From contig CP006915.1 in the NCBI GenBank assembly GCA_000503915.1, positions 120,001-152,000 of the forward strand: a stretch of DNA of 32,000 nucleotides, given 5' to 3'. This stretch comes from Candidatus Saccharimonadota bacterium. Its GTDB lineage: Bacteria; Patescibacteriota; Saccharimonadia; Saccharimonadales; Saccharimonadaceae. Both the position numbers and the translations under genes were made by a program. Below, piece by piece: positions 8,381 through 19,407 of the stretch (the first letter of the stretch is position 1; the number at the start of each line of letters is the position of its first letter). The notes beneath the pieces were generated by a model, which saw only the letters and a program-made list of their open reading frames with translations, ran no database searches and was not told the DNA's origin.

Positions 8381-8397
8381 GACGGGGTGTGGCGCAG
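8381..8397 (+). repeat. 17-nt duplicate of the tRNA-Pro 5' end plus 2 leader nt (GACGGGGTGTGGCGCAG)
   Basis: Identical to 8492-8508. The sequence after it does not continue as a tRNA. Confidence 0.8.
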
Positions 8398-8493
8398 CTA
8401 CAGTGAGACAAACCTACGGTTTTTCTCACCGCGCCGAGAACGAAGTAAATTCGTTCATCGGGCTGCTCTTTTCCCTAAGTAGTGCAAAAATGA

Positions 8494-8569
8494 CGGGGTG
8501 TGGCGCAGTTGGTAGCGCGCGCGGTTTGGGACCGTGAGGTCGAAGGTTCAAGTCCTTTCACCCCGACCA
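8494..8569 (+). tRNA. tRNA-Pro (anticodon UGG), CCA encoded
   Basis: Hand-folded cloverleaf. Acceptor CGGGGTG/CACCCCG, D arm GCGC-AGTTGGTA-GCGC, anticodon arm CGCGG-TTTGGGA-CCGTG, T arm GAAGG-TTCAAGT-CCTTT, discriminator A, then CCA. Confidence 0.9.
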
Positions 8570-10353
8570 GAAGATATTTCATCTAATTCCGTCATCAAAT
8601 TGTATGGCGGTTTTAGTTTTATAACAGGGGTAGAATCATCTCCAGCACGTAGGTTCGCAACAAACTCACTGCATATAGTATCTAGAACCATGATGTCAGT
8701 AGTTTTTAGCATATTTAACACCTTAGAACGTGTAAGTTCGTAGAACTCTTGCTCAGTAGGTAATGCTGTATCAAGTTTAGCTAGCTCAGTCTTGTTACCT
8801 GTTATAGCCTCTTCGTCTAGGCGTATAAGCTGTTGATACTCCTCTAGCTTTCCCTCATGGTATTTCTTGTAGTCATCAGGACTGTTTACTTGAAACTCTT
8901 GATAACGTGCATACTGTTGTTCGTTATTCTTTTGTGACTGCTTAGCCTCAGCAAGTTTGCGGTTCAATATAGCCCTGTCAGAAGCAATACGCTGTTCGAG
9001 GCTGTTCTTGTACATACGGTATGCATGTTCACTCTTCTTAGTTAAGTGTCGTAGTTGCCACTCGATACCTGCTAGTACGTACTTGCCTCGGATACTCTTT
9101 GAGAGTGTTATATTGAGGTCTTTCTGCTCAGCTGTATTGTGTCGTAAACATGCCTTATTGCGACAGTAGAAACTAATAACCCATTTTCCAGTATTTTTAC
9201 CACGCTTAATAGGCGTGTGTTGAAATCTCATAGCGTTATCGCAGTAATCACAAATAACCTTGTTGTGTAGCAATCCATAGTCTAGACGTTGTGAACGGTT
9301 CGTCTTTACGCTTGTAGTTTTACCAAAGTCTTTAGCGACATCAGCATTTAGCTGTATATATTCATCTGCTGTTATAAGTGGCTTAAAGTTATACAGGTCT
9401 ATGAGGTTTGCGAGGTTGTCACCGTAGCTGTATAAGCCAGAGTAAAACGAATCTGTAAAGATGTTGCCGACCATCTGCTTAGTAACGTTTACCAGCTTAG
9501 GTTTGTCATCTTGGTCTTTACGCTCGGTTAGCTTAGCACTGTTCAAAAACTCTGCTATATCAGTATTATTCATACCGCCATACAATCGCATATCTACAGC
9601 TCTTCGAAGTAGATTCCAGTTGTATTCATCAGGTGTAAAGTATCCAGTTATCGAGTCTACATAGTAGCCCTTTTTCACTACGCCGTTATACTTACCCTCT
9701 ACGATATTACCAAGAGTACCACGCTTCACATCTACTGCTAGTTTGTCCGAGTATTGCTTTGATGTAGCAAACAAAATACCTAACATCATCTTGCCGTTTG
9801 CTGTGTTATCAAACTGGTAGGTCACAAAGGCGAGGTCTTGAATATCTTCGTGGTCAATCATTTCAATGACCTCACCAGCCTCCTTCATGTTACGGGATAA
9901 ACGGTCAGGCGACCACGATATAAGCCCGTGATACTTGCCAGTCTTAAATCCTAGTAGCATTTTGTCGAAAATAGGACGGTTGCCAGAAGTCTTGGCCGAA
10001 GCACTTTCTACGAATATATCCTCTTCACGAACCGTAACCTTTAACGTATTAGTGGCAAGTTTTATACATTCAGCTCGTTGGTCATCTAGTGAACGTACTT
10101 GCTTGGTTTCATCATCAGTAGACTTGCGTAGGTATATAGCGTAACGGCGTTTTTCTTTAGGCAGTATCTTTTTAGCCCCCTCGGTTGTTGCAGAGAAGTA
10201 GTCTAGAAGGTCATTGACACTACGTTCACTATTACCAAAGGCTTTATTGCGGTATTCAGATGTATATACATACTTTTCTTGTACACTTGCAAGCTCAGCC
10301 TCATCTGCGAGAACTTTAGTGCGTTTTTTACGATTAGTTGTACCTTTTGGCAT
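8548..10353 (-). CDS. large serine recombinase (integrase)
   Basis: Resolvase-type catalytic domain (YLRKSTDDE...SLDDQ, SWSPDRLSRN). Recombinase domain, zinc ribbon (CDYCDNAMRF...FYCRNKAC) and a long coiled-coil C-terminus. ATG 10353 is preferred over the TTG at 10380. The last 7 codons and the stop lie inside tRNA-Pro. Confidence 0.9.
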   Translation of the reverse strand: MPKGTTNRKKRTKVLADEAELASVQEKYVYTSEYRNKAFGNSERSVNDLLDYFSATTEGAKKILPKEKRRYAIYLRKSTDDETKQVRSLDDQRAECIKLATNTLKVTVREEDIFVESASAKTSGNRPIFDKMLLGFKTGKYHGLISWSPDRLSRNMKEAGEVIEMIDHEDIQDLAFVTYQFDNTANGKMMLGILFATSKQYSDKLAVDVKRGTLGNIVEGKYNGVVKKGYYVDSITGYFTPDEYNWNLLRRAVDMRLYGGMNNTDIAEFLNSAKLTERKDQDDKPKLVNVTKQMVGNIFTDSFYSGLYSYGDNLANLIDLYNFKPLITADEYIQLNADVAKDFGKTTSVKTNRSQRLDYGLLHNKVICDYCDNAMRFQHTPIKRGKNTGKWVISFYCRNKACLRHNTAEQKDLNITLSKSIRGKYVLAGIEWQLRHLTKKSEHAYRMYKNSLEQRIASDRAILNRKLAEAKQSQKNNEQQYARYQEFQVNSPDDYKKYHEGKLEEYQQLIRLDEEAITGNKTELAKLDTALPTEQEFYELTRSKVLNMLKTTDIMVLDTICSEFVANLRAGDDSTPVIKLKPPYNLMTELDEISSGRGERT

Positions 10354-10410
10354 ATATTGATTCCTACTAATATTGTACAAAACTTGTGCGGTAATGTAAA
10401 CTATTGTTAT

Positions 10411-10593
10411 ATGGAAAATGAACTACCAGAATATCTAACATTGCCCGAAGTGGTGAAGATATTAAAGGTGCACCCTAATACTTTACGTAACTGGGATAGG
10501 GACGGCACACTCAAGGCCATACGTATAGGCAAACGCAGCATACGCCGATGGAAAAAGTCGGATATTTTAAAGTTCATAGAGGCTGATAAGTAG
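10411..10593 (+). CDS. excisionase-family / MerR-like HTH DNA-binding protein (candidate recombination directionality factor)
   Basis: 60 aa, LTLPEVVKILKVHPNTLRNWDRDGTLKAIRIGKRSIRRWKKSDILKFI. Divergent from the recombinase with a 57-bp spacer. ATG 10411 lies inside track ORF 10279..10593. Confidence 0.8.
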   Translation: MENELPEYLTLPEVVKILKVHPNTLRNWDRDGTLKAIRIGKRSIRRWKKSDILKFIEADK

Positions 10594-10595
10594 TT

Positions 10596-11153
10596 ATGGC
10601 AAATAAGAAAGACGACTATATGGCGACTAACTCTCAAGTAATGCTTGCCACTACAAAGCCGTATATTGCTGGTGCAAAAATCCAACTAGAACGCTACCTT
10701 GAAGCGCAAAGAATAATGAAGACCCACAAGATGGTTTTGGGCGGAGGAATAGATAAATGCACCTATGAACTATCTGCACTACTTGAGCATCTAGATAGTA
10801 TAGAGGTGCAATTAAGGAACAGAGGCATATCATTGCCCGCGGGTGAAATAATTCGGCAATTCCGTAATCATTTGCGACACGATAGCAGAGGCGAAGAAGA
10901 CCGCAGTAATGGCAGACGAGGTCAGGCAATAGGTTTGAACGATAAATTATTGGTGCAAATAGTGTTTACTGACAGTGGTGTAAAAATGGGCTCAAACGAA
11001 CTGACAGCCAAACAAATAGACACCTACATTACCACCGCTGAAACGATAATGTGGGCAATGGTGCTGGGCGGCAAGCTGGACATTGACGGCGAAACAGTAA
11101 CTGTCTATCAGCAGTCTACTGATATAACAAATAAAAATAGTCCTGAGGTGTAA
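10596..11153 (+). CDS. hypothetical protein with an RNxxxH (Rx4H) motif, possible HEPN-like domain
   Basis: 185-aa ORF starting 2 nt after the HTH gene stop. The helical N-terminal half ends in IIRQFRNHLRHD. No other recognisable motif. Confidence 0.6.
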   Translation: MANKKDDYMATNSQVMLATTKPYIAGAKIQLERYLEAQRIMKTHKMVLGGGIDKCTYELSALLEHLDSIEVQLRNRGISLPAGEIIRQFRNHLRHDSRGEEDRSNGRRGQAIGLNDKLLVQIVFTDSGVKMGSNELTAKQIDTYITTAETIMWAMVLGGKLDIDGETVTVYQQSTDITNKNSPEV

Positions 11154-12019
11154 TGGACGGTCTATTTAATAGTAGAGAGATTGCGGTAGGGTTATGGTTG
11201 GCGGTGCTAATAATTTTCGTGGCTAGTAAAAAAGCTGTGCGTTCATCATTTGGAGCCGTTCTTAAAACGTTCTTCACACCAAAGATAATCATACCGCTAC
11301 TGCTATCTTTTACTCCGAGTGTGTTGGTCGTATGGCTGTTGGCATATCTAAATCTTTGGGACTTATCTGTACTTAAAGAAACAATCTATTGGGTTATAGG
11401 TACAGGCATCATAATGTTCGGTAAGTTTGATGGTGTTAAAGATTTGAAGTCACTATACAGACAGACCGCAAAAGAAACCCTAGCATTAGTTGTTGTGCTG
11501 GAGTTCATTATTTGGCTCTATGTATTCCCCTTATGGGCTGAACTACTCCTAGTACCATTCGTAACTCTTATAGTGCTGTTGGCGACAGTGGCAAAGTATA
11601 TGAAAACAGATGGCATAGAATTAACACGCAAGGTGCTAAATGGTACGCAAGTATTCATTGGTCTACTCATACTTTTATTTGCGCTCATAGGCTTCGTAAA
11701 GAGCCCCGTGGCGTTATTTACGTTTCAAAACCTAGAGCTATTCTTATTGCCTATAGTCTTATCGCTTACCTATGTACCCTCCGTATACTTCATAGCGTTG
11801 TATAGCAAGTACGAGCTAGTGTTTCTTCGTATTGACTACCCCATGAAACTCAATCGTAAAAGTAAACGAGCTATCAAACTAGCCGCAACAAGGCGTTGTG
11901 GTCTGAGTGTGTACGTTACGGGCGAAATGATACGACATTTGGCAATCAACTTAACTACCGACACCACAAAGGCTCAAGCTCTAAAAATCATAAAGACTTT
12001 TAACCCAAGACAACCGTAA
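11153..12019 (+). CDS. polytopic integral membrane protein, unknown function
   Basis: 288 aa with about 7 hydrophobic segments and a basic C-terminal tail. Its start overlaps the previous stop (TAATG), indicating translational coupling. Confidence 0.7.
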   Translation: MDGLFNSREIAVGLWLAVLIIFVASKKAVRSSFGAVLKTFFTPKIIIPLLLSFTPSVLVVWLLAYLNLWDLSVLKETIYWVIGTGIIMFGKFDGVKDLKSLYRQTAKETLALVVVLEFIIWLYVFPLWAELLLVPFVTLIVLLATVAKYMKTDGIELTRKVLNGTQVFIGLLILLFALIGFVKSPVALFTFQNLELFLLPIVLSLTYVPSVYFIALYSKYELVFLRIDYPMKLNRKSKRAIKLAATRRCGLSVYVTGEMIRHLAINLTTDTTKAQALKIIKTFNPRQP

Positions 12020-12042: not shown

Positions 12043-12080
12043 CAACATTGCGAGAAACGCCCCTGTGACTGATTCGAATT
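12043..12080. repeat. left copy of a 38-nt imperfect inverted repeat flanking the helicase-nuclease gene
   Basis: CAACATTGCGAGAAACGCCCCTGTGACTGATTCGAATT matches the reverse complement of 16157-16194 at 28 of 38 positions (hand alignment). It includes the 12-nt block GAGAAACGCC.C plus ATTCGA. Confidence 0.6.
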
Positions 12081-12090
12081 AGGCGTTTTT
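12055..12090 (+). terminator. probable intrinsic terminator of the HTH / RNxxxH protein / membrane-protein operon
   Basis: AAACGCC (12055-12061) pairs with GGCGTTT (12082-12088), with a T run to 12090. The 20-nt loop is long, so confidence is moderate. Confidence 0.55.
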
Positions 12091-12130: not shown

Positions 12131-12138
12131 TGTATAAT
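12131..12138 (+). promoter_or_regulatory. candidate extended -10 promoter (TGTATAAT) for the helicase-nuclease gene
   Basis: TGTATAAT lies 29 nt upstream of ATG 12167. No obvious Shine-Dalgarno sequence. Confidence 0.4.
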
Positions 12139-12166: not shown

Positions 12167-15100
12167 ATGACAAAAATACCAGTATCTATCAGCCAACTAG
12201 CAAAATACGGACTTGATTATGTAAGCCTAATTTCAAGTAGTGCCTCCAGAAGCCGACCCGTTAAGACTGAGCAGATGGATACCGACCTACTCTCTATCCC
12301 AGACGTGATTTTCAAAAGCGAAGTTGACTCCATAACAATTGATTTAGTCACCTCTCTAGATAAACAGTTCGACCCGAGCATACCGAACGAGGAAAAGAGC
12401 GACGAGCAACGACAAGCTGAGTGGCGTATTGAACGGGACAGAGGTATCTTAAATAAGATTCAAGAAATAGATACAAAAATTAGAACCGATGAATATACGA
12501 AACGGGTAGTCCTGCAAACTGGCTTTATATCATTTGAGGCAAAACGCTACCTTGAGTCTGAATTCAATGAAGAGTACGAGAAATACGAGGCTCCGTTGTT
12601 TCAAATTCCAGTTGCGGCAATAAACTTCAAATATAATCCTGATGGCGTAACAGTAACTATCGACTTACCTGATAATTATGTAGAGATTTTAAACGGCCCA
12701 TTAAAGAACTTCTTGCCTCAGCAGTATTTTGATAAGGTGTTTAAGTTTATAGCGGATTCAGAGGCGGAAGAGAAAACAATGCTTCCGCTTGCCGATGATT
12801 TTATCGAAGACTTGTGGTCGGCAATAAGAGTTCAGTTAGATGGATTAGATGCGAAGTCAATATCTGAAGCTCCTAGTTTTGCAACCAGCATTGTTGCAAT
12901 CACGAATAAGACAAATCACTTCCTTGCCGAAGACCTTAAGGCTATAGCTGCACTAGAAGATGAAGACTTGCTAGAAACGTCATTAGGCAGTTGGGTGTCA
13001 GATGAAGATATGGCAATTGAACAGGTAGTTTCTGATGACGGTAGTACGGAAATATTCTTTCCGTTTGATTATGACAAGTATCAGCTAAAAGTCTTAGGCA
13101 TTACAGCAAATAAAGCGGTTATTGTTGAAGGTCCTCCAGGAACTGGAAAATCACAGACCATCTCAAACTTACTTGTACATCTTGCAGCCACGGGTAAACG
13201 GGTGCTATTTGCTAGTCAAAAAGACCAAGCTATACGTGGAGTCAAAGATAAGCTAAAAGCATTGGATGTGCCATTTTTGTATGGGTATATTCCTGACAAA
13301 ACATCTAAGCTGTACACAGAAGAAGATGAAAAAGACAGTGCCGCAAACACACTACTTGCACTCAATAGAGAGTTCCAAAAAGGAAAGGTCGGTGACTTAA
13401 AAGAACCTCTGTCGTTACTTGCCAACCGTTCAAATATTTTTGTAGAGAACTTAAATAACGAACGTTCTATCTATGCCCTACTAGAAGAGCGTAGAAGCTT
13501 GAGCTACCTTGATTCTTTTCATCCGTACGAAATTGATAGCGGATGGTATAGCCAGTGTGGCTTATTAGAAGACACTATTAATGGATTAGAGGCCAGTGTT
13601 AACAAATATGAAAAGGCTCATGAGAAGTTTTTAAGGGCAGCCAACAAGAAGTTTGAAAATCTAGAATTAGATTACCAGGCGACTATAGACTCAATTGAAA
13701 GTATCTACACATACTTTAAGGAAAATATGCCCGAACGGTCTGGTTGGATAGGTAGTAAGGTTAATGAAATGAAATTGCGTAATGCACTGAAAGAGAATGG
13801 CCGCAACCTATTGCAGGAAATTTTCGTAGAAGTTGAAAAGGTACTATTCTCTGACAATACAAAGTCTGCCCGATTGCAGCTATTAGATAGTCTGTCGGAT
13901 TACTTTGTTTACAGTAGTGAGCTACAGGCAATAACTGAAAGTCGTTCTTCACTTAACGAATTACTCTCAGGCAAAGAAATATCACCGACTACGTACGCCT
14001 CTCTCAAAAAGGTAATCTTGGATAATGGTAGTAAGGAGAAGGTGTTCGGGGATTTAACTAGGTATAACGAAATCACCGAGCAGGTAGAAGAAATGTCGTT
14101 GTACTCGGCGAATGAGCTTAACCGAGAAATCAAGGATATTCGCAAGTTTTACAGAACCAATATCACAAATTACGTACGTAACCGTATCCTAACCAGAGTT
14201 GGTGAAGCGAATAACAGTAAGGACGTAAGGGCTACCCTAGCTCAGGTTGCCCGAAGTCTTACAAAGAGTAAGAAAGCCAATAAGACATTCGACAGATTGA
14301 AGCACAACGAAGACAATTTTAGTGCCATGTCTAAGGTCTTGCCAATCTGGATGATGAGCCTAGATGATGTTAGTCGTATAGTTCCACTCGAGAAGAATGC
14401 ATTTGATTATGTAATTATCGATGAAGCATCACAGTGTAATTTTGCATATGCGTTTCCAGCAATGTTCCGTGCTGAACATACAATTTTCTTTGGTGATACT
14501 TTGCAGATGCGTGATGACAACATTATGTTTAAGTCGAATGACCAACTTAATGCTATTGCTAAGAAGCATAAGATACCTGAGGTTTATCAAATTAAGGCGG
14601 AAGAAGACACGGTAAAATCCGTTATGGATATTGCTCATCTTAATGGCTTTAAAACAACAACTCTCAAGTATCACTATCGCTCACCGAGGGAGCTTATAGG
14701 CTTCTCTAATGAATCTTTCTACGAACCAATAGGTCGAAAACTAGAGGCAGTTAACGACAATATCGTACCCTACAAAGATACTGGGCGTGTTCTTCTCAAC
14801 CATATTGTTAAGCCAAATGCAGATGAAGAGCTGTCCGACAGGACAAATCTAGCCGAGGTACGTAAAATTCAGGAGTTGGTTGACGAGATTAAAAGTGACC
14901 CCGTACTGAAGGATAAGTCCATTGCTGTTCTAACCTTCTTTAACGAGCAAGCTGAGCTGATAAGAAACGCCATTAAACACGAAGATATTAAGGTCTCTAT
15001 AATTGACGGTATTCAGGGTGATGAACGTGATATCGTAATCTATTCATTTGTTATTAAAGACCCTAGCGACAAGAAGCGTTACATTGCCCTAACTGGTGAA

Positions 15101-16051
15101 GGTGGCGAGATTCGTAAAGATATTGCAGCTGGTCGTGTAAACGTTGCCTTTAGCCGAGCTAGATTACAGGTTCATACCGTTACATCGTTAGCTCCTGAGC
15201 TATGGCCTGAGGGTATTTGGATTAAGCGATACCTGGAGTATGTCGAAAATAGCGGTATAGTGAACCGTCGTCACAGTAAGGCAGAGCAGCAGTTTGACTC
15301 TAATTTTGAGGAAAAGGTGTTTAGCTATTTGGCGAAAGAGCTGGATGCTAGCGAGTATACCTTAGAAACGCAGGTAGAATCTCTTGGGTTTAAAATTGAT
15401 TTAGTAGTTTGCCGTAATGGCAAGAAACTAGCAATCGAGATGGATGGCCCTTCGCACTTTGAAGGTGGAGATGGTCAGGTATACGTAAAGGATGACTGGG
15501 ACAGGCAGGGTGCTCTTGAAACTGCTGGATGGAACTTTTACCGCATTTCATACTTTGATTGGACGAAAGACCAACAGGCTGAGCATAAAGCACTCAGTGA
15601 ATATATACAGCAGTACTTCGATGATGAAAGTGTTTCAAGCAAAACTACCGTCCTAAAAGAACTCGAAAAAGAAACAGTGGCACCAGAAGAATCGCCTAAG
15701 GATATGTATGTTACCGACTTTTCAGAAGAGAGTGTAGATAACGTTACTCCTGTCCAAGCTGTTCCTGTGACCAGGAATGTGAAGCGCACTAATACTGCCA
15801 AGACTACTCCCGCCAAGCCGACCTTCTCGATAGGAGACCGTGAGGTTAACCAAGAGGACTTAGAAAGATATCTTAGTACTCATCAACAGAGTTATATCGA
15901 AATACGATACCAGTCTATGCGTGCAGGGTCAGCAAAATACTGGAGAACTATACGTCTAGATAGCTACGATGGCACGTACATGTATTCCAAGCAGGATAAC
16001 GCACCTTATCCAATAAAATATCGACGAGACCGAGTAATAGAGTTTAGATAG
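12167..16051 (+). CDS. 1294-aa DUF4011-like N-terminus + Upf1/DNA2-like SF1 helicase + DUF559/Vsr-fold endonuclease-like domain + WYL-like C-terminal domain
   Basis: Helicase motifs EGPPGTGKSQT (I), YVIIDEASQC (II), FFGDTLQM (III), YHYRSPRELIGFSNESFY, IDGIQGDERDIVIYSFV (V) and GRVNVAFSRARLQVH (VI). Nuclease-like GFKIDLVVCRNGKKLAIEMDGPSHF...DRQGALETAGWNFYRISYFDW. The tail IEIRYQSMRAGSAKYWRTIRLDSYDGTYMYSKQDNAPYPIKYRRDRVIEF follows the WYL pattern (tentative). Confidence 0.9.
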   Translation: MTKIPVSISQLAKYGLDYVSLISSSASRSRPVKTEQMDTDLLSIPDVIFKSEVDSITIDLVTSLDKQFDPSIPNEEKSDEQRQAEWRIERDRGILNKIQEIDTKIRTDEYTKRVVLQTGFISFEAKRYLESEFNEEYEKYEAPLFQIPVAAINFKYNPDGVTVTIDLPDNYVEILNGPLKNFLPQQYFDKVFKFIADSEAEEKTMLPLADDFIEDLWSAIRVQLDGLDAKSISEAPSFATSIVAITNKTNHFLAEDLKAIAALEDEDLLETSLGSWVSDEDMAIEQVVSDDGSTEIFFPFDYDKYQLKVLGITANKAVIVEGPPGTGKSQTISNLLVHLAATGKRVLFASQKDQAIRGVKDKLKALDVPFLYGYIPDKTSKLYTEEDEKDSAANTLLALNREFQKGKVGDLKEPLSLLANRSNIFVENLNNERSIYALLEERRSLSYLDSFHPYEIDSGWYSQCGLLEDTINGLEASVNKYEKAHEKFLRAANKKFENLELDYQATIDSIESIYTYFKENMPERSGWIGSKVNEMKLRNALKENGRNLLQEIFVEVEKVLFSDNTKSARLQLLDSLSDYFVYSSELQAITESRSSLNELLSGKEISPTTYASLKKVILDNGSKEKVFGDLTRYNEITEQVEEMSLYSANELNREIKDIRKFYRTNITNYVRNRILTRVGEANNSKDVRATLAQVARSLTKSKKANKTFDRLKHNEDNFSAMSKVLPIWMMSLDDVSRIVPLEKNAFDYVIIDEASQCNFAYAFPAMFRAEHTIFFGDTLQMRDDNIMFKSNDQLNAIAKKHKIPEVYQIKAEEDTVKSVMDIAHLNGFKTTTLKYHYRSPRELIGFSNESFYEPIGRKLEAVNDNIVPYKDTGRVLLNHIVKPNADEELSDRTNLAEVRKIQELVDEIKSDPVLKDKSIAVLTFFNEQAELIRNAIKHEDIKVSIIDGIQGDERDIVIYSFVIKDPSDKKRYIALTGEGGEIRKDIAAGRVNVAFSRARLQVHTVTSLAPELWPEGIWIKRYLEYVENSGIVNRRHSKAEQQFDSNFEEKVFSYLAKELDASEYTLETQVESLGFKIDLVVCRNGKKLAIEMDGPSHFEGGDGQVYVKDDWDRQGALETAGWNFYRISYFDWTKDQQAEHKALSEYIQQYFDDESVSSKTTVLKELEKETVAPEESPKDMYVTDFSEESVDNVTPVQAVPVTRNVKRTNTAKTTPAKPTFSIGDREVNQEDLERYLSTHQQSYIEIRYQSMRAGSAKYWRTIRLDSYDGTYMYSKQDNAPYPIKYRRDRVIEFR

Positions 16052-16992: not shown

Positions 16993-17099
16993 AAGGTATG
17001 GATTTTTCATTTCTGCTTATTGTACGCTTATGGTACAAAGTAGTGCCCCACTGAACAGAGCTTGAACTGTAGGCTTGGCTATCCCTACCACACCCCACC
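16993..17099. repeat. copy A of a ~108-nt island repeat
   Basis: AAGGTATGGATTTTTC...AAAGTAGT...TAGGCTTGGCTATCCCTACCACACCCCACC. The ends and central block are shared with copy B. The internal hairpins differ in sequence but are retained. Confidence 0.8.
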
Positions 17100-17143
17100 A
17101 ATGTGTAGTTCTATATCTGCATAAACGTTATAATTACAATAAT

Positions 17144-18571
17144 ATGGCGCAAGAGACAATATTTTATTCATGGCAATCCGACAACTCGAAGACTCGAAGT
17201 TACGTAGAGCGTGCCCTAAAGAAAGCCGTAGAGAGCATTGCAGATGACCCTAGCATCGAATCAGCACCTCGCATAGACAAAGATACACAGGATGTCGCAG
17301 GAGCGGTTCACATTGTTGATACTATAAAAAAGAAGATTGATGAGTGCGGCATATTTCTTGCAGACGTATCGCTTGTTGATAAAGCAGCTTCTGGTCGAGC
17401 CATCGTCAATCAAAATGTAATGTTTGAACTTGGTTACGCTATCGGCAAGCATAGCGAGTCTAGAGTCATTATGGTGGCTAACGCAGACCTGGGTGATGTA
17501 AAGAACCTTCCTTTTGACATCTCACACCATAGAGTCATTCAATTCTCTCCATCCGCCGACCCTAAAGCAACAAAACTCCAGGCTTCACTAGAATCTGCTA
17601 TCAATATTCATCTGCAAGCATTAGCCGTACAAAACAAAGAATCATTGGTGACTTCGGAAAAGGAAAAGCTACTTACTGCTATAGATAATGGCAAGCCAAC
17701 TAGAACTCTCGCAAAGAAGTATTTTGAGACTGCGTATAGTCAGTATCTAGGTTTATCCCCAGGTAGGTATAAGGACGGCAACCACCAGCATTACGCCTCC
17801 GAGGTCTTCGAGGCATATGAGAAGACGAAACATATTGCACTAGAGCTACACGAAGTATTTGAGGTAGCAGCAGAACACAAAAAGGAAGATGTCTTACTGC
17901 AAGCATATAAATCTATTCAAATTGTTTCACAGTACTATGACGTTATGCCCGAGGATGGTGGACAGCTAAGTGAAGTATCGAAGGATTATTACATCCTCGT
18001 AGTTAATGAAATCGTCTCACTGTTAATGGGTAGTATTAGCCATGAAAAGCTCTGGGGACTCATGCAAGAAATAGCATCTACAAAGCTAAGCAGAGCGGAC
18101 ATGTACGAAGAAACAAGAACCTTAGACAGGTTATACGGGCATCCTCAAAACCTTCTCAACTACTACAAAGAGCTAAAGAGCGTAAACTATGTGATTCCCA
18201 TGACTCCACTCATTGCAGAACGTTTCTCCGATAGTCAGGATGTTCTTCAAGCCTACATAGACGGAAGTATGCTGCGTTACTTCCTTGTAGGCAGCTACCC
18301 GTGGATTGTAGGCTTGCTATTAGGGAACTCTTGGACAAAGCATATCCCCGAATTCTTCGCCGAGTTTAAGAAGGTATCATTCGTTAATGCGATGATGAAA
18401 GTTACAGGCGAAAAAACAGTAGATGAATTCCGTTCAAACATATGGAAACAGGCATCTGCCGACCTTGCGAACTGGAGCTACCCCAATGACAATCTGCTGC
18501 CAGCACTTAAGTTTGTGGGCATAGAGACAGAGGGTGACATAGCCAAAAACCAGCAAGTAATTTCGGTATAA
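17144..18571 (+). CDS. TIR-like / nucleoside 2-deoxyribosyltransferase-like N-terminal domain protein with a ~300-aa helical C-terminal domain of unknown function
   Basis: N-terminus IFYSWQSDNSKTR...IFLADVSLV...NQNVMFELGYAIGK...RVIMV resembles the TIR-like fold of COG4271/Cap12-type proteins, recalled from memory. TATAAT at 17129-17134 is 9 nt from the ATG (near-leaderless). Confidence 0.7.
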   Translation: MAQETIFYSWQSDNSKTRSYVERALKKAVESIADDPSIESAPRIDKDTQDVAGAVHIVDTIKKKIDECGIFLADVSLVDKAASGRAIVNQNVMFELGYAIGKHSESRVIMVANADLGDVKNLPFDISHHRVIQFSPSADPKATKLQASLESAINIHLQALAVQNKESLVTSEKEKLLTAIDNGKPTRTLAKKYFETAYSQYLGLSPGRYKDGNHQHYASEVFEAYEKTKHIALELHEVFEVAAEHKKEDVLLQAYKSIQIVSQYYDVMPEDGGQLSEVSKDYYILVVNEIVSLLMGSISHEKLWGLMQEIASTKLSRADMYEETRTLDRLYGHPQNLLNYYKELKSVNYVIPMTPLIAERFSDSQDVLQAYIDGSMLRYFLVGSYPWIVGLLLGNSWTKHIPEFFAEFKKVSFVNAMMKVTGEKTVDEFRSNIWKQASADLANWSYPNDNLLPALKFVGIETEGDIAKNQQVISV

Positions 18572-19299: not shown

Positions 19300-19407
19300 A
19301 GGTATGGAGTTTTCGTTTTTCGTTTATTGCGTACAAACGGCATAAAGTAGTACTACCTCTAATAATACTTATACTACTAGGCTTGTCCGACCCTACCACA
19401 CCCCACC
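19299..19407. repeat. copy B of the ~108-nt island repeat
   Basis: AAGGTATGGAGTTTTCG...AAAGTAGT...TAGGCTTGTCCGACCCTACCACACCCCACC. Begins on the stop codon of the 238-aa gene. Confidence 0.8.

Follow-up and report, generated by a model that had tools for sequence, protein, structure and literature searches.

A single gene at positions 12167..16051 of a 32,000-nucleotide (nt) window of Candidatus Saccharimonadota bacterium DNA (assembly GCA_000503915.1, contig CP006915.1, positions 120,001 to 152,000 of the forward strand) encodes a 1294-amino-acid (aa) helicase-nuclease with a small beta-barrel at its C-terminus. Judged from its sequence, the protein appears to be a compact, divergent branch, specific to bacteria of the candidate phyla radiation (CPR), of the superfamily comprising Hhe, ProA, PDC-S37, and the DUF3320 helicase-nucleases, and it falls in no named family. 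The view favored here, with somewhat better than even confidence, is that small integrative islands of Saccharibacteria carry the gene as cargo and that its product, a stand-alone helicase-nuclease, acts as an Hhe-type single-gene defense or anti-mobile-DNA effector. The product is 100% identical to the hypothetical protein RAAC3_TM7C00001G0151 (P0001) of Ca. Saccharibacteria RAAC3_TM7_1, as found by database protein look-up.

Domain architecture

The gene divides into the following parts.

12167..16051, plus strand: whole gene, a single open reading frame (ORF) of 1294 aa, from the ORF list
12167..13096, plus strand: N-terminal domain, aa 1-310, family-specific alpha/beta, containing APLFQIPV
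13097..13258, plus strand: first part of helicase domain 1A, with Walker A GPPGTGKSQT at aa 322-331 (AAA_11/AAA_19/AAA_30 from aa 312)
13259..14386, plus strand: ~376-aa insert in domain 1A, aa 365-740, between Walker A and motif II
14387..15181, plus strand: helicase motifs II-VI, aa 741-1005 (AAA_12 E 7.8e-21; IGHMBP2 4b3g E 6e-11)
15305..15604, plus strand: REase_MTES_1575 nuclease (Vsr/DUF559-like PD-(D/E)xK; PF18741), aa 1047-1146
15614..15808, plus strand: S/T/V/P-rich linker, aa 1150-1214, set by composition and by conservation of 0.56-0.61 with gaps
15809..16048, plus strand: Sm-like (WYL-like) beta-barrel module of ~75-80 aa, aa 1215-1294

An earlier note on this DNA had quoted a series of peptide strings as signs of an intact superfamily 1 (SF1) helicase of the Upf1 type joined to a nuclease. 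All of them are present in the ORF in the stated order: GPPGTGKSQT at aa 322, IIDEASQ at 750, GDTLQM at 776, YRSPRELI at 837, QGDERDIV at 950, and VAFSRAR at 993 in the helicase; KIDLVV at 1076, AIEMDGPSHF at 1089, and GWNFYRISY at 1121 in the nuclease block; and IEIRY...RTIRL...YMY...KYRRDRVIEF in the tail. The helicase assignment holds, with Pfam matches to AAA_11 (aa 314-781, E 5e-12, 46.5 bits) and AAA_12 (aa 823-1005, E 8e-21, 75 bits) that exceed the cut-off of 27 bits. Since the 257-position AAA_11 model is spread over 468 residues, the helicase is split by the ~376-aa insert, the center of which (aa ~450-650) is less conserved than any other stretch before the C-terminal linker (conservation 0.54-0.72 in an alignment of 124 family members). 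The sole solved relative found by a sequence search of the PDB, and hence the closest, is the Upf1-like helicase IGHMBP2.

The nuclease, which the note had described as having a DUF559/Vsr fold, is likewise confirmed; its best model is REase_MTES_1575 (E 7e-17, 61.8 bits against a cut-off of 38.2, positions 1-95 of 96 matched), and DUF559 itself is marginal (E 0.025). Throughout the 124-member alignment, helicase motifs I, II, III, and V/VI are invariant or nearly so, and the nuclease residues D1078, E1091, D1093, and H1097 are invariant, such that both the helicase and the nuclease look active. The linker that follows is poorly conserved and rich in S, T, V, and P, as a low-complexity linker should be according to the note, and its acidity is mild (13 D/E versus 8 K/R over aa ~1150-1214).

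In the AlphaFold2 (AF2) model of the N-terminal domain, with a predicted local distance difference test (pLDDT) score of 77, residues 79-108 form a long helix and residues 112-166 a long beta-hairpin sheet, and Foldseek detected no fold counterpart in the PDB (template-modeling (TM) score ≤ 0.11). When aa 1-321, the insert, and the tail were scanned singly against Pfam at E ≤ 10, nothing significant was found, the only match being DUF7301 at E 0.006. The resemblance of the N-terminal ~300 aa to DUF4011 (PF13195) proposed in the note is not borne out: aa 1-321 alone gives no Pfam match to it at E ≤ 10, while the N-terminus of Hhe gives DUF4011 at E 2e-37. An hhalign comparison with seven annotated DUF4011/DUF3320 N-termini yielded a weak alignment (E 0.13, 119 collinear columns) that pairs APLFQIPV with APLFTIPV of Hhe. 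With hmmsearch, the N-domain profile gave nothing significant against annotated Hhe, DUF4011, DUF3320, and Priestia relatives, and a word-indexed search with the same profile reached family fragments only and no DUF4011 protein. The domain may be a very divergent, shortened DUF4011.

Relation to known helicase-nucleases

Profiles of named systems match the protein in PADLOC (PDC-S37 at E 3.5e-71, Hhe at 2e-28, MkoA/MkoC at ~1e-26) and in NCBIfam (ProA, NF058533, at 2.5e-68; Hhe, NF042953, at 2.4e-39). The PDC-S37 match scores 238.5 bits and aligns aa 634-1198 with positions 830-1379 of a 1550-position model, not its full length. The region that the query shares with PDC-S37 and ProA takes in helicase motifs II-VI and the nuclease and reaches into the linker; it amounts to about the last 45-60% of the query and ~35-40% of each model, and the N-terminal third and the tail are unmatched. 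No paper on ProA or PDC-S37 was found in the literature. Every one of these closest named relatives is an anti-phage protein or a candidate for such a role, which counts in favor of a defense function.

Hhe is also a single large protein of mobile context, in which an N-terminal domain, an SF1 helicase split by an insert, AAA_12, and REase_MTES_1575 follow one another in the same order. In contrast with the query, Hhe is ~1,900 aa long, carries a DUF4011 domain detectable by Pfam and an insert of ~900 aa, and has no Sm-like tail. The two proteins are ~24-25% identical over aa ~585-1195, comprising the C-terminal helicase half and the nuclease, and over a 46-aa segment around Walker A. The Klebsiella Hhe glutamate (GIECDG) aligns with E1091 (AIEMDG). 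Hhe is active against lambda, T3, T7, and PhiV-1, and the substitution E1731A in the Vsr-like domain, which alters the E. coli equivalent of this glutamate, abolishes defense (10.1101/2022.06.16.496414).

The DUF3320 helicase-nucleases of Proteobacteria and Bacteroidota, such as that of the Sphingobium plasmid pSF1 (WP_140043497), resemble the query in joining a helicase to REase_MTES_1575, a linker, and a small C-terminal module. They differ in length (~1,940-1,990 aa), and neither the tail profile nor Pfam links DUF3320 to the tail. Annotated plasmid relatives, which include DUF3320, DUF4011, and Hhe proteins of ~1,900 aa, have their parts in the same order and are 24-28% identical to the query over its C-terminal helicase half and nuclease, the best tblastn match (28%) being a DUF3320 protein. 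No DNA match to the locus was found in the E. coli genomes searched.

The comparison with Mokosh made in the note stands for the Upf1-like SF1 helicase core, which MkoA and MkoC use in defense, and for nothing beyond that core. The nuclease of Mokosh is reportedly of the PLD type, different in kind and arrangement from the C-terminal Vsr-like nuclease of the query. Nhi also uses an Upf1-like SF1 helicase core in defense, and its likeness to the query is probably limited to the core. The view that the four-part combination is undescribed is correct in that no curated threshold of a named system is reached; however, Hhe and the DUF3320 proteins follow the same plan of N-terminal domain, split helicase, REase_MTES_1575, and small C-terminal module.

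The C-terminal tail

Of 120 close homologues, 111 end in the tail; some lineages lack it, which marks it as a real separable module. Residues Y1251, R1263, and RRDR 1286-1289 are invariant. An AlphaFold model built on 31 diverse tails (pLDDT 83) consists of a helix (H18-27) followed by five strands, and the Foldseek matches in the PDB are of the Sm fold throughout, including Hfq, archaeal LSm, and Gemin6/7, with probability ~1. The WYL domain of DriD bound to single-stranded DNA (ssDNA; 8tp8_B) ranks sixth; its query-normalized TM score of 0.57 is equaled in the list by one designed barrel and exceeded by none, and its identity of 16-18% is among the highest in the list. The Hfq and LSm matches have query-normalized TM scores of 0.50-0.54 and E-values similar to that of DriD (0.07-0.2). 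Among viral structures, Foldseek found uncharacterized small barrels only.

At the sequence level, the Pfam WYL model (PF13280), for which the gathering score is 21.8 bits, gives no match to the window's own tail at E ≤ 10 and is reached below threshold by two of the 31 tails scanned singly (E 7.6e-4, 19.9 bits; and E 0.064), in both cases with tail residues 32-82 on model positions 15-67/70. Searches of PDB sequences with the tail profile and with single tails returned no WYL or other meaningful match. Pfam detected no HTH or WCX partner domain beside the tail, which ends the protein. The tail profile gave nothing significant by hmmsearch against the annotated Hhe, DUF4011, DUF3320, and Priestia relatives, and a word-indexed search reached fragments of the same family only.

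The tail shares a small Sm/SH3-like barrel with the WYL domains of DriD, PafBC, BrxR/CapW, and Thermotoga elfii Pif1 (TePif1), and in TePif1 the domain likewise terminates an SF1 helicase (10.1101/163188). Unlike these domains, the tail falls below the Pfam threshold, stands without HTH or WCX, forms a sequence family of its own, and keeps other partners. It is read here as an Sm-like barrel, probably a distant relation of WYL, and may be termed WYL-like on sequence and model, membership in WYL proper not being established. The WYL tail of the earlier note therefore survives in part: the barrel is of the Sm/SH3-like class that contains WYL, DriD is among the top structural matches, and two relatives give sub-threshold matches, but the window's own tail does not match WYL and Hfq and LSm fit about equally well.

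These observations bear on a rival proposal along the lines of the note, in which the tail is a true WYL ligand sensor: on binding a small molecule or an oligonucleotide as an alarm signal, it would activate the helicase-nuclease allosterically, making the protein a self-contained sensor-effector. The fold, the place of DriD among the best structural matches, and the collinear sub-threshold Pfam matches speak for it, as does the resemblance of the tail motif to the WYL pattern i.i.Y...R.v.P..l...WYL...R.FrldRI; two reports also describe WYL domains as regulators of defense loci (PMC10693628; PMC13622015). The missing WYL match of the window's tail, the equally good fit of Hfq and LSm, and the lack of a WCX or HTH partner count against it, and the solved WYL ligands described in 8tp8 and in PMC11804915 are ssDNA or ssRNA rather than small molecules. 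In addition, several lineages have no tail or a different module, which points to an accessory rather than an obligatory switch. The proposal is considered unlikely.

Recurrence of the tail and the variable C-terminal position

The tail profile, run exhaustively with HMMER over 1.84 billion representative proteins, produced 71 matches. Outside the helicase family and its fragments, the module is nearly always found at the very C-terminus of proteins (P0158, P0159, P0169, P0175, P0181, P0161, P0146, P0186), and the settings in which it occurs are as follows.

Proteins of 560-800 aa with RNA_pol_A_CTD, Sigma70_r4, and a winged helix, often joined by the methylated-DNA-binding C-terminal domain of DpnI
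Small alphaCTD-like proteins of 240-305 aa
Zn-ribbon proteins of ~180 aa
A Peptidase_S51 protein
A second helicase-MTES_1575 lineage without the N-terminal domain

The partner domains are mostly DNA-binding, and none of these proteins is a classical HTH-WYL-WCX regulator. The tail is a small-domain family without an existing model that bridges the Sm and WYL folds. Given that its other partners are DNA-binding domains, the ligand-sensing role attributed to it in the note is not indicated.

Within the helicases, the tail is present at 22 of the 28 homologous loci compared, and the remainder illustrate the variability of this position. The oral Nanosynbacter version (L003, 1200 aa) ends after the linker, and the helicase of L040, from a MAG (metagenome-assembled genome) labeled Parcubacteria, ends after the nuclease. 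In three distant members of the family (L033 9998-14320, L037 9983-14116, L038 9992-14125), a tandem G(F/Y)TKKGF module occupying the C-terminal ~135 aa replaces the tail. This module is tentatively regarded as PC4-like from a profile alignment with the ssDNA-binding domain of human PC4, and a hidden Markov model (HMM) search of the PDB gave no match to it. A sub-lineage of 1,480 aa (L034 1611-6053, L035 8178-12632) carries an extra ~70-aa domain between nuclease and tail, with the pattern …SVSIRRPD…KGWEARF…GKAWSKG…VPVY, which is paired with the tail alone in the 178-aa protein P0141. Among more remote relatives, a compact one on a Priestia plasmid has a Zn ribbon at its end, and the large ones of Proteobacteria have DUF3320. 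The exchange of small modules at one position suggests that they serve in accessory substrate binding and do not act as an indispensable switch.

Homologous loci and mobility

The window is one of the 28 loci; look-up of exact proteins gave five more, and species-representative genomes gave the other 22. All come from Saccharibacteria or Saccharimonadales, apart from two MAGs labeled Parcubacteria. In a broader view, the gene is common in environmental and human-oral Saccharibacteria, one protein cluster alone holding 188 member sequences on 98 contigs. No conserved synteny was detected across the 28 loci, in which neighbors are almost all singletons. A large serine recombinase lies at most seven genes away, always on the 5' side, in 12 loci; several of the loci with no recombinase nearby end at contig borders. 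The recombinases of different loci are 22-35% identical, while the adjacent helicases are 70-94% identical. For other shared neighbors, some of which may be paralogues, the helicase is the more conserved in 50 of 56 pairs. The GC content of the helicase gene (36-45%, and 28% in one outlier locus) is set against flanks of 31-52%. A gene that is non-syntenic, linked to recombinases, and unlike its flanks in GC content is best viewed as a small cargo gene moving among integrative elements and variable spots.

The same data weigh on two alternatives. If the protein were a housekeeping helicase-nuclease of Saccharibacteria for repair or recombination, in a Dna2- or AddAB-like role suited to reduced genomes, the 70-94% conservation across many members of the group and the core genes flanking several loci would be accounted for. 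The lack of synteny, the GC content, the loss and exchange of C-terminal domains, the association with islands that carry different recombinases, and the split or truncated copies (L036, L039) render this reading so improbable as to be nearly negligible; the note had named conserved, syntenic core contexts as the finding that would speak against a defense gene, and the contexts are instead non-syntenic and recombinase-associated. Alternatively, the protein may serve the mobile element itself, for example by processing, replicating, or transferring the island once excised or by excluding competing elements; the large serine recombinases that recur a few genes away, invariably 5' of the gene, and the excisionase-like HTH_17 genes of the islands could suggest as much. 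Near-identical helicases beside unrelated recombinases are the mark of exchangeable cargo and not of the core of one element, 16 of the 28 loci have no recombinase nearby, and the relatives of known function are defense proteins, so that service to the element is quite unlikely.

Also counted in favor of defense are neighbors within three genes of the helicase, which include type I restriction-modification subunits, IetA with an S8 peptidase, MADS mad2/mad3, AriA-like ATPases, AbiJ-like/Hypoth_Ymh genes, and PADLOC candidates; these are bare occurrences, and ordinary core genes lie within the same distance. In one Saccharibacteria MAG (L008/L022, 14185-17474, minus strand), a pair of Peptidase_S8 and AAA genes lies directly downstream of the helicase and beside a Fic gene. 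The IetA match among the pooled neighbors is attributed to this AAA gene, and the pair appears to be IetAS-like.

The helicase gene is split into two ORFs at two loci, L036 10001-13505 (196 + 921 aa) and L039 10001-14175 (572 + 861 aa). The split copies are either frameshifted pseudogenes or assembly errors.

Proposed function

The cargo gene is envisaged to act in defense as follows. The motor would load onto invader nucleic acid that is single-stranded or branched and move along it using ATP, and the Vsr-like nuclease would then cut the DNA, with E1091 expected to be essential as the equivalent of the catalytic glutamate of Hhe. Target discrimination or autoinhibition would most plausibly fall to the N-terminal domain. 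From its fold and its partner domains, the tail would be an accessory module for binding or sensing nucleic acid, probably ssDNA, and not a receptor for small molecules. The C-terminal WYL domain of TePif1 confers high-affinity binding of ssDNA and couples ATP hydrolysis to unwinding (10.1101/163188), and the WYL domain of PafBC binds ssDNA (PMC11804915). By analogy with TePif1, the tail may help to engage the substrate or couple the ATPase to unwinding; the Sm fold, the DNA-binding partners, and the analogies to TePif1, DriD, and PafBC make it most likely that the tail adds an ssDNA-binding surface.

Several observations weigh against this proposal. Matches to named systems cover only the C-terminal half of the helicase, the nuclease, and part of the linker, and their scores fall far short of the cut-offs, at 230.8 bits against 1500 for ProA (aa 469-1238 on positions 1030-1774 of 1903) and 134.6 bits against 2000 for Hhe (aa 933-1189 only). 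The Foldseek E-values of the tail (0.07-0.2) are weak, as expected of a small domain, the predicted binding of nucleic acid by the tail is read from its fold and company only, and the link of the G(F/Y)TKKGF module to PC4 is tentative (hhalign E 3.6e-4, only 37% probability). Many neighbors across the loci are housekeeping genes (PGK, TIM, pyruvate kinase, tRNA synthetases), and PADLOC gives no match for most island genes of the window. Finally, the substrate could be RNA, on which helicases of the Upf1 type and proteins of the Sm fold frequently act.

Developed into an explanation of its own, the last point holds that the target is RNA or RNA:DNA hybrids; by a Mokosh-like logic, an RNA helicase of the Upf1/IGHMBP2 type, equipped with an RNA-binding Sm-like tail and a RAP/Vsr-like nuclease, would degrade invader transcripts or R-loops. 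IGHMBP2 as the best solved relative, the matches to MkoA/MkoC, the Sm, Hfq, and LSm folds that top the structure search, and a weak similarity to the RAP domain (E 0.0024; PF08373, precomputed on many homologues) are in keeping with such a target. The nuclease, however, belongs to the Vsr/MTES_1575 family of DNA endonucleases, with the DNA-cutting Hhe as a relative, and the domains that partner the tail elsewhere bind DNA. Helicases of the IGHMBP2 type also unwind DNA. An RNA target is accordingly held to be very unlikely.

The defense reading can also be carried further. The tail may be a new, dispersed, Sm-like module that senses nucleic acid, a distant sister of WYL common to helicase-nuclease effectors and to DNA-binding proteins of the RNA-polymerase-alphaCTD, sigma-region-4, and DpnI_C types. 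In this protein it would recognize ssDNA ends, or DNA that carries modifications, as a nucleic-acid cue of infection and permit the nuclease to act; sensor and effector would thus be combined in one self-contained protein, which would provide the CRISPR-poor Saccharibacteria with a major defense against phages. This extension is speculative and rather doubtful.

The island and the flanks of the gene

The note placed the gene on an island, and the GC profile of the window agrees: the gene lies in a stretch of ~41% GC that extends from ~8 to 20.5 kb, with ~51% on both sides, and that contains a tRNA-Pro gene and a serine recombinase. Features of the island and of the region upstream of the gene are listed below.

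8494..8569, plus strand: tRNA-Pro(TGG), left edge of the low-GC island (ARAGORN, GC profile)
8548..10380, minus strand: large serine recombinase with Resolvase and Recombinase domains (Pfam)
10279..10593, plus strand: HTH_17 excisionase-like ORF, also matched by PADLOC mad1 of the MADS system (E 8.5e-9)
11153..12019, plus strand: ORF of 288 aa, multi-pass membrane-looking, directly upstream of the giant gene
12053..12090, plus strand: terminator-like hairpin, AGAAACGCC / GGCGUUUUU, 3' of the upstream 288-aa gene (fold)
12133..12138, plus strand: perfect -10 hexamer TATAAT, 28 nt 5' of the ATG (read from the sequence)
17075..18571, plus strand: TIR-like gene of 498 aa, with an N-terminal CAP12/Pycsar-type TIR domain (Pfam E 3.7e-6)

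The 3' end of the recombinase ORF overlaps the 3' end of tRNA-Pro by 22 nt (8548-8569). Beyond the recombinase, the excisionase-like gene, and the giant gene, the island contains two ORFs without a family match, a DUF4190 membrane protein, the CAP12/Pycsar-type TIR-domain protein, and an IS200-like transposase at its far end. No second copy of the tRNA-Pro 3' end, as an attachment (att) repeat, was found within the window, and such repeats therefore do not fix the right border of the island. The tRNA-Pro 5' end (8492-8508) is duplicated exactly over 17 nt at 8381-8397, 111 nt upstream of the tRNA. The mad1 match of the excisionase-like ORF probably reflects the shared HTH only.

The TIR-like protein matches the PADLOC TIR effector/PDC-S35 (E ~2e-5), with a C-terminal region of ~350 aa unmatched; its gene is, by domain content, a second defense-like gene on the same island as the helicase. 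It is bracketed, together with the following 238-aa ORF, by a 30-nt direct repeat (17070-17099 and 19378-19407, 87% identical), and the 2.3-kb stretch between the repeats may be a cassette inserted within the island. The 288-aa membrane ORF is 90% identical at the locus of the closest relative (L006/L007 8987-9874) and absent from all other loci examined; a two-gene system comprising this ORF and the helicase was rejected because the ORF is common to the closest relative only.

The note had further described the gene as transcribed from its own extended -10 promoter and insulated by hairpins on both sides, and both descriptions require qualification. The TATAAT hexamer is perfect, yet the TG at 12131-12132 abuts it directly, where canonical TGnTATAAT spacing has one base between; no -35 element is seen for it, and a consensus promoter scan did not list the site. 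The upstream hairpin exists, with a 9-bp stem and a U-run, but its stability is no better than that of shuffled sequences (z -0.62), and folding against shuffles revealed no distinctive hairpin in the intergenic region downstream of the giant gene (z -0.48).

Significance

Saccharibacteria are symbiotic bacteria with tiny genomes, and their means of resisting phages and foreign DNA are poorly known; CPR bacteria largely lack CRISPR-Cas (PMC4742961). A single gene of ~3.9 kb that is conserved and horizontally mobile is a concrete candidate for defense in these organisms. At about two-thirds the size of Hhe, the product could be an easier model for Hhe-type helicase-nucleases, no solved structure of which was found in the PDB sequence search. 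The tail family, for which there is no existing model, would be useful for annotating conflict systems. As cultivable Nanosynbacter strains and a phage targeting one of them exist (PMC13578794), the prediction of a defense role is testable.

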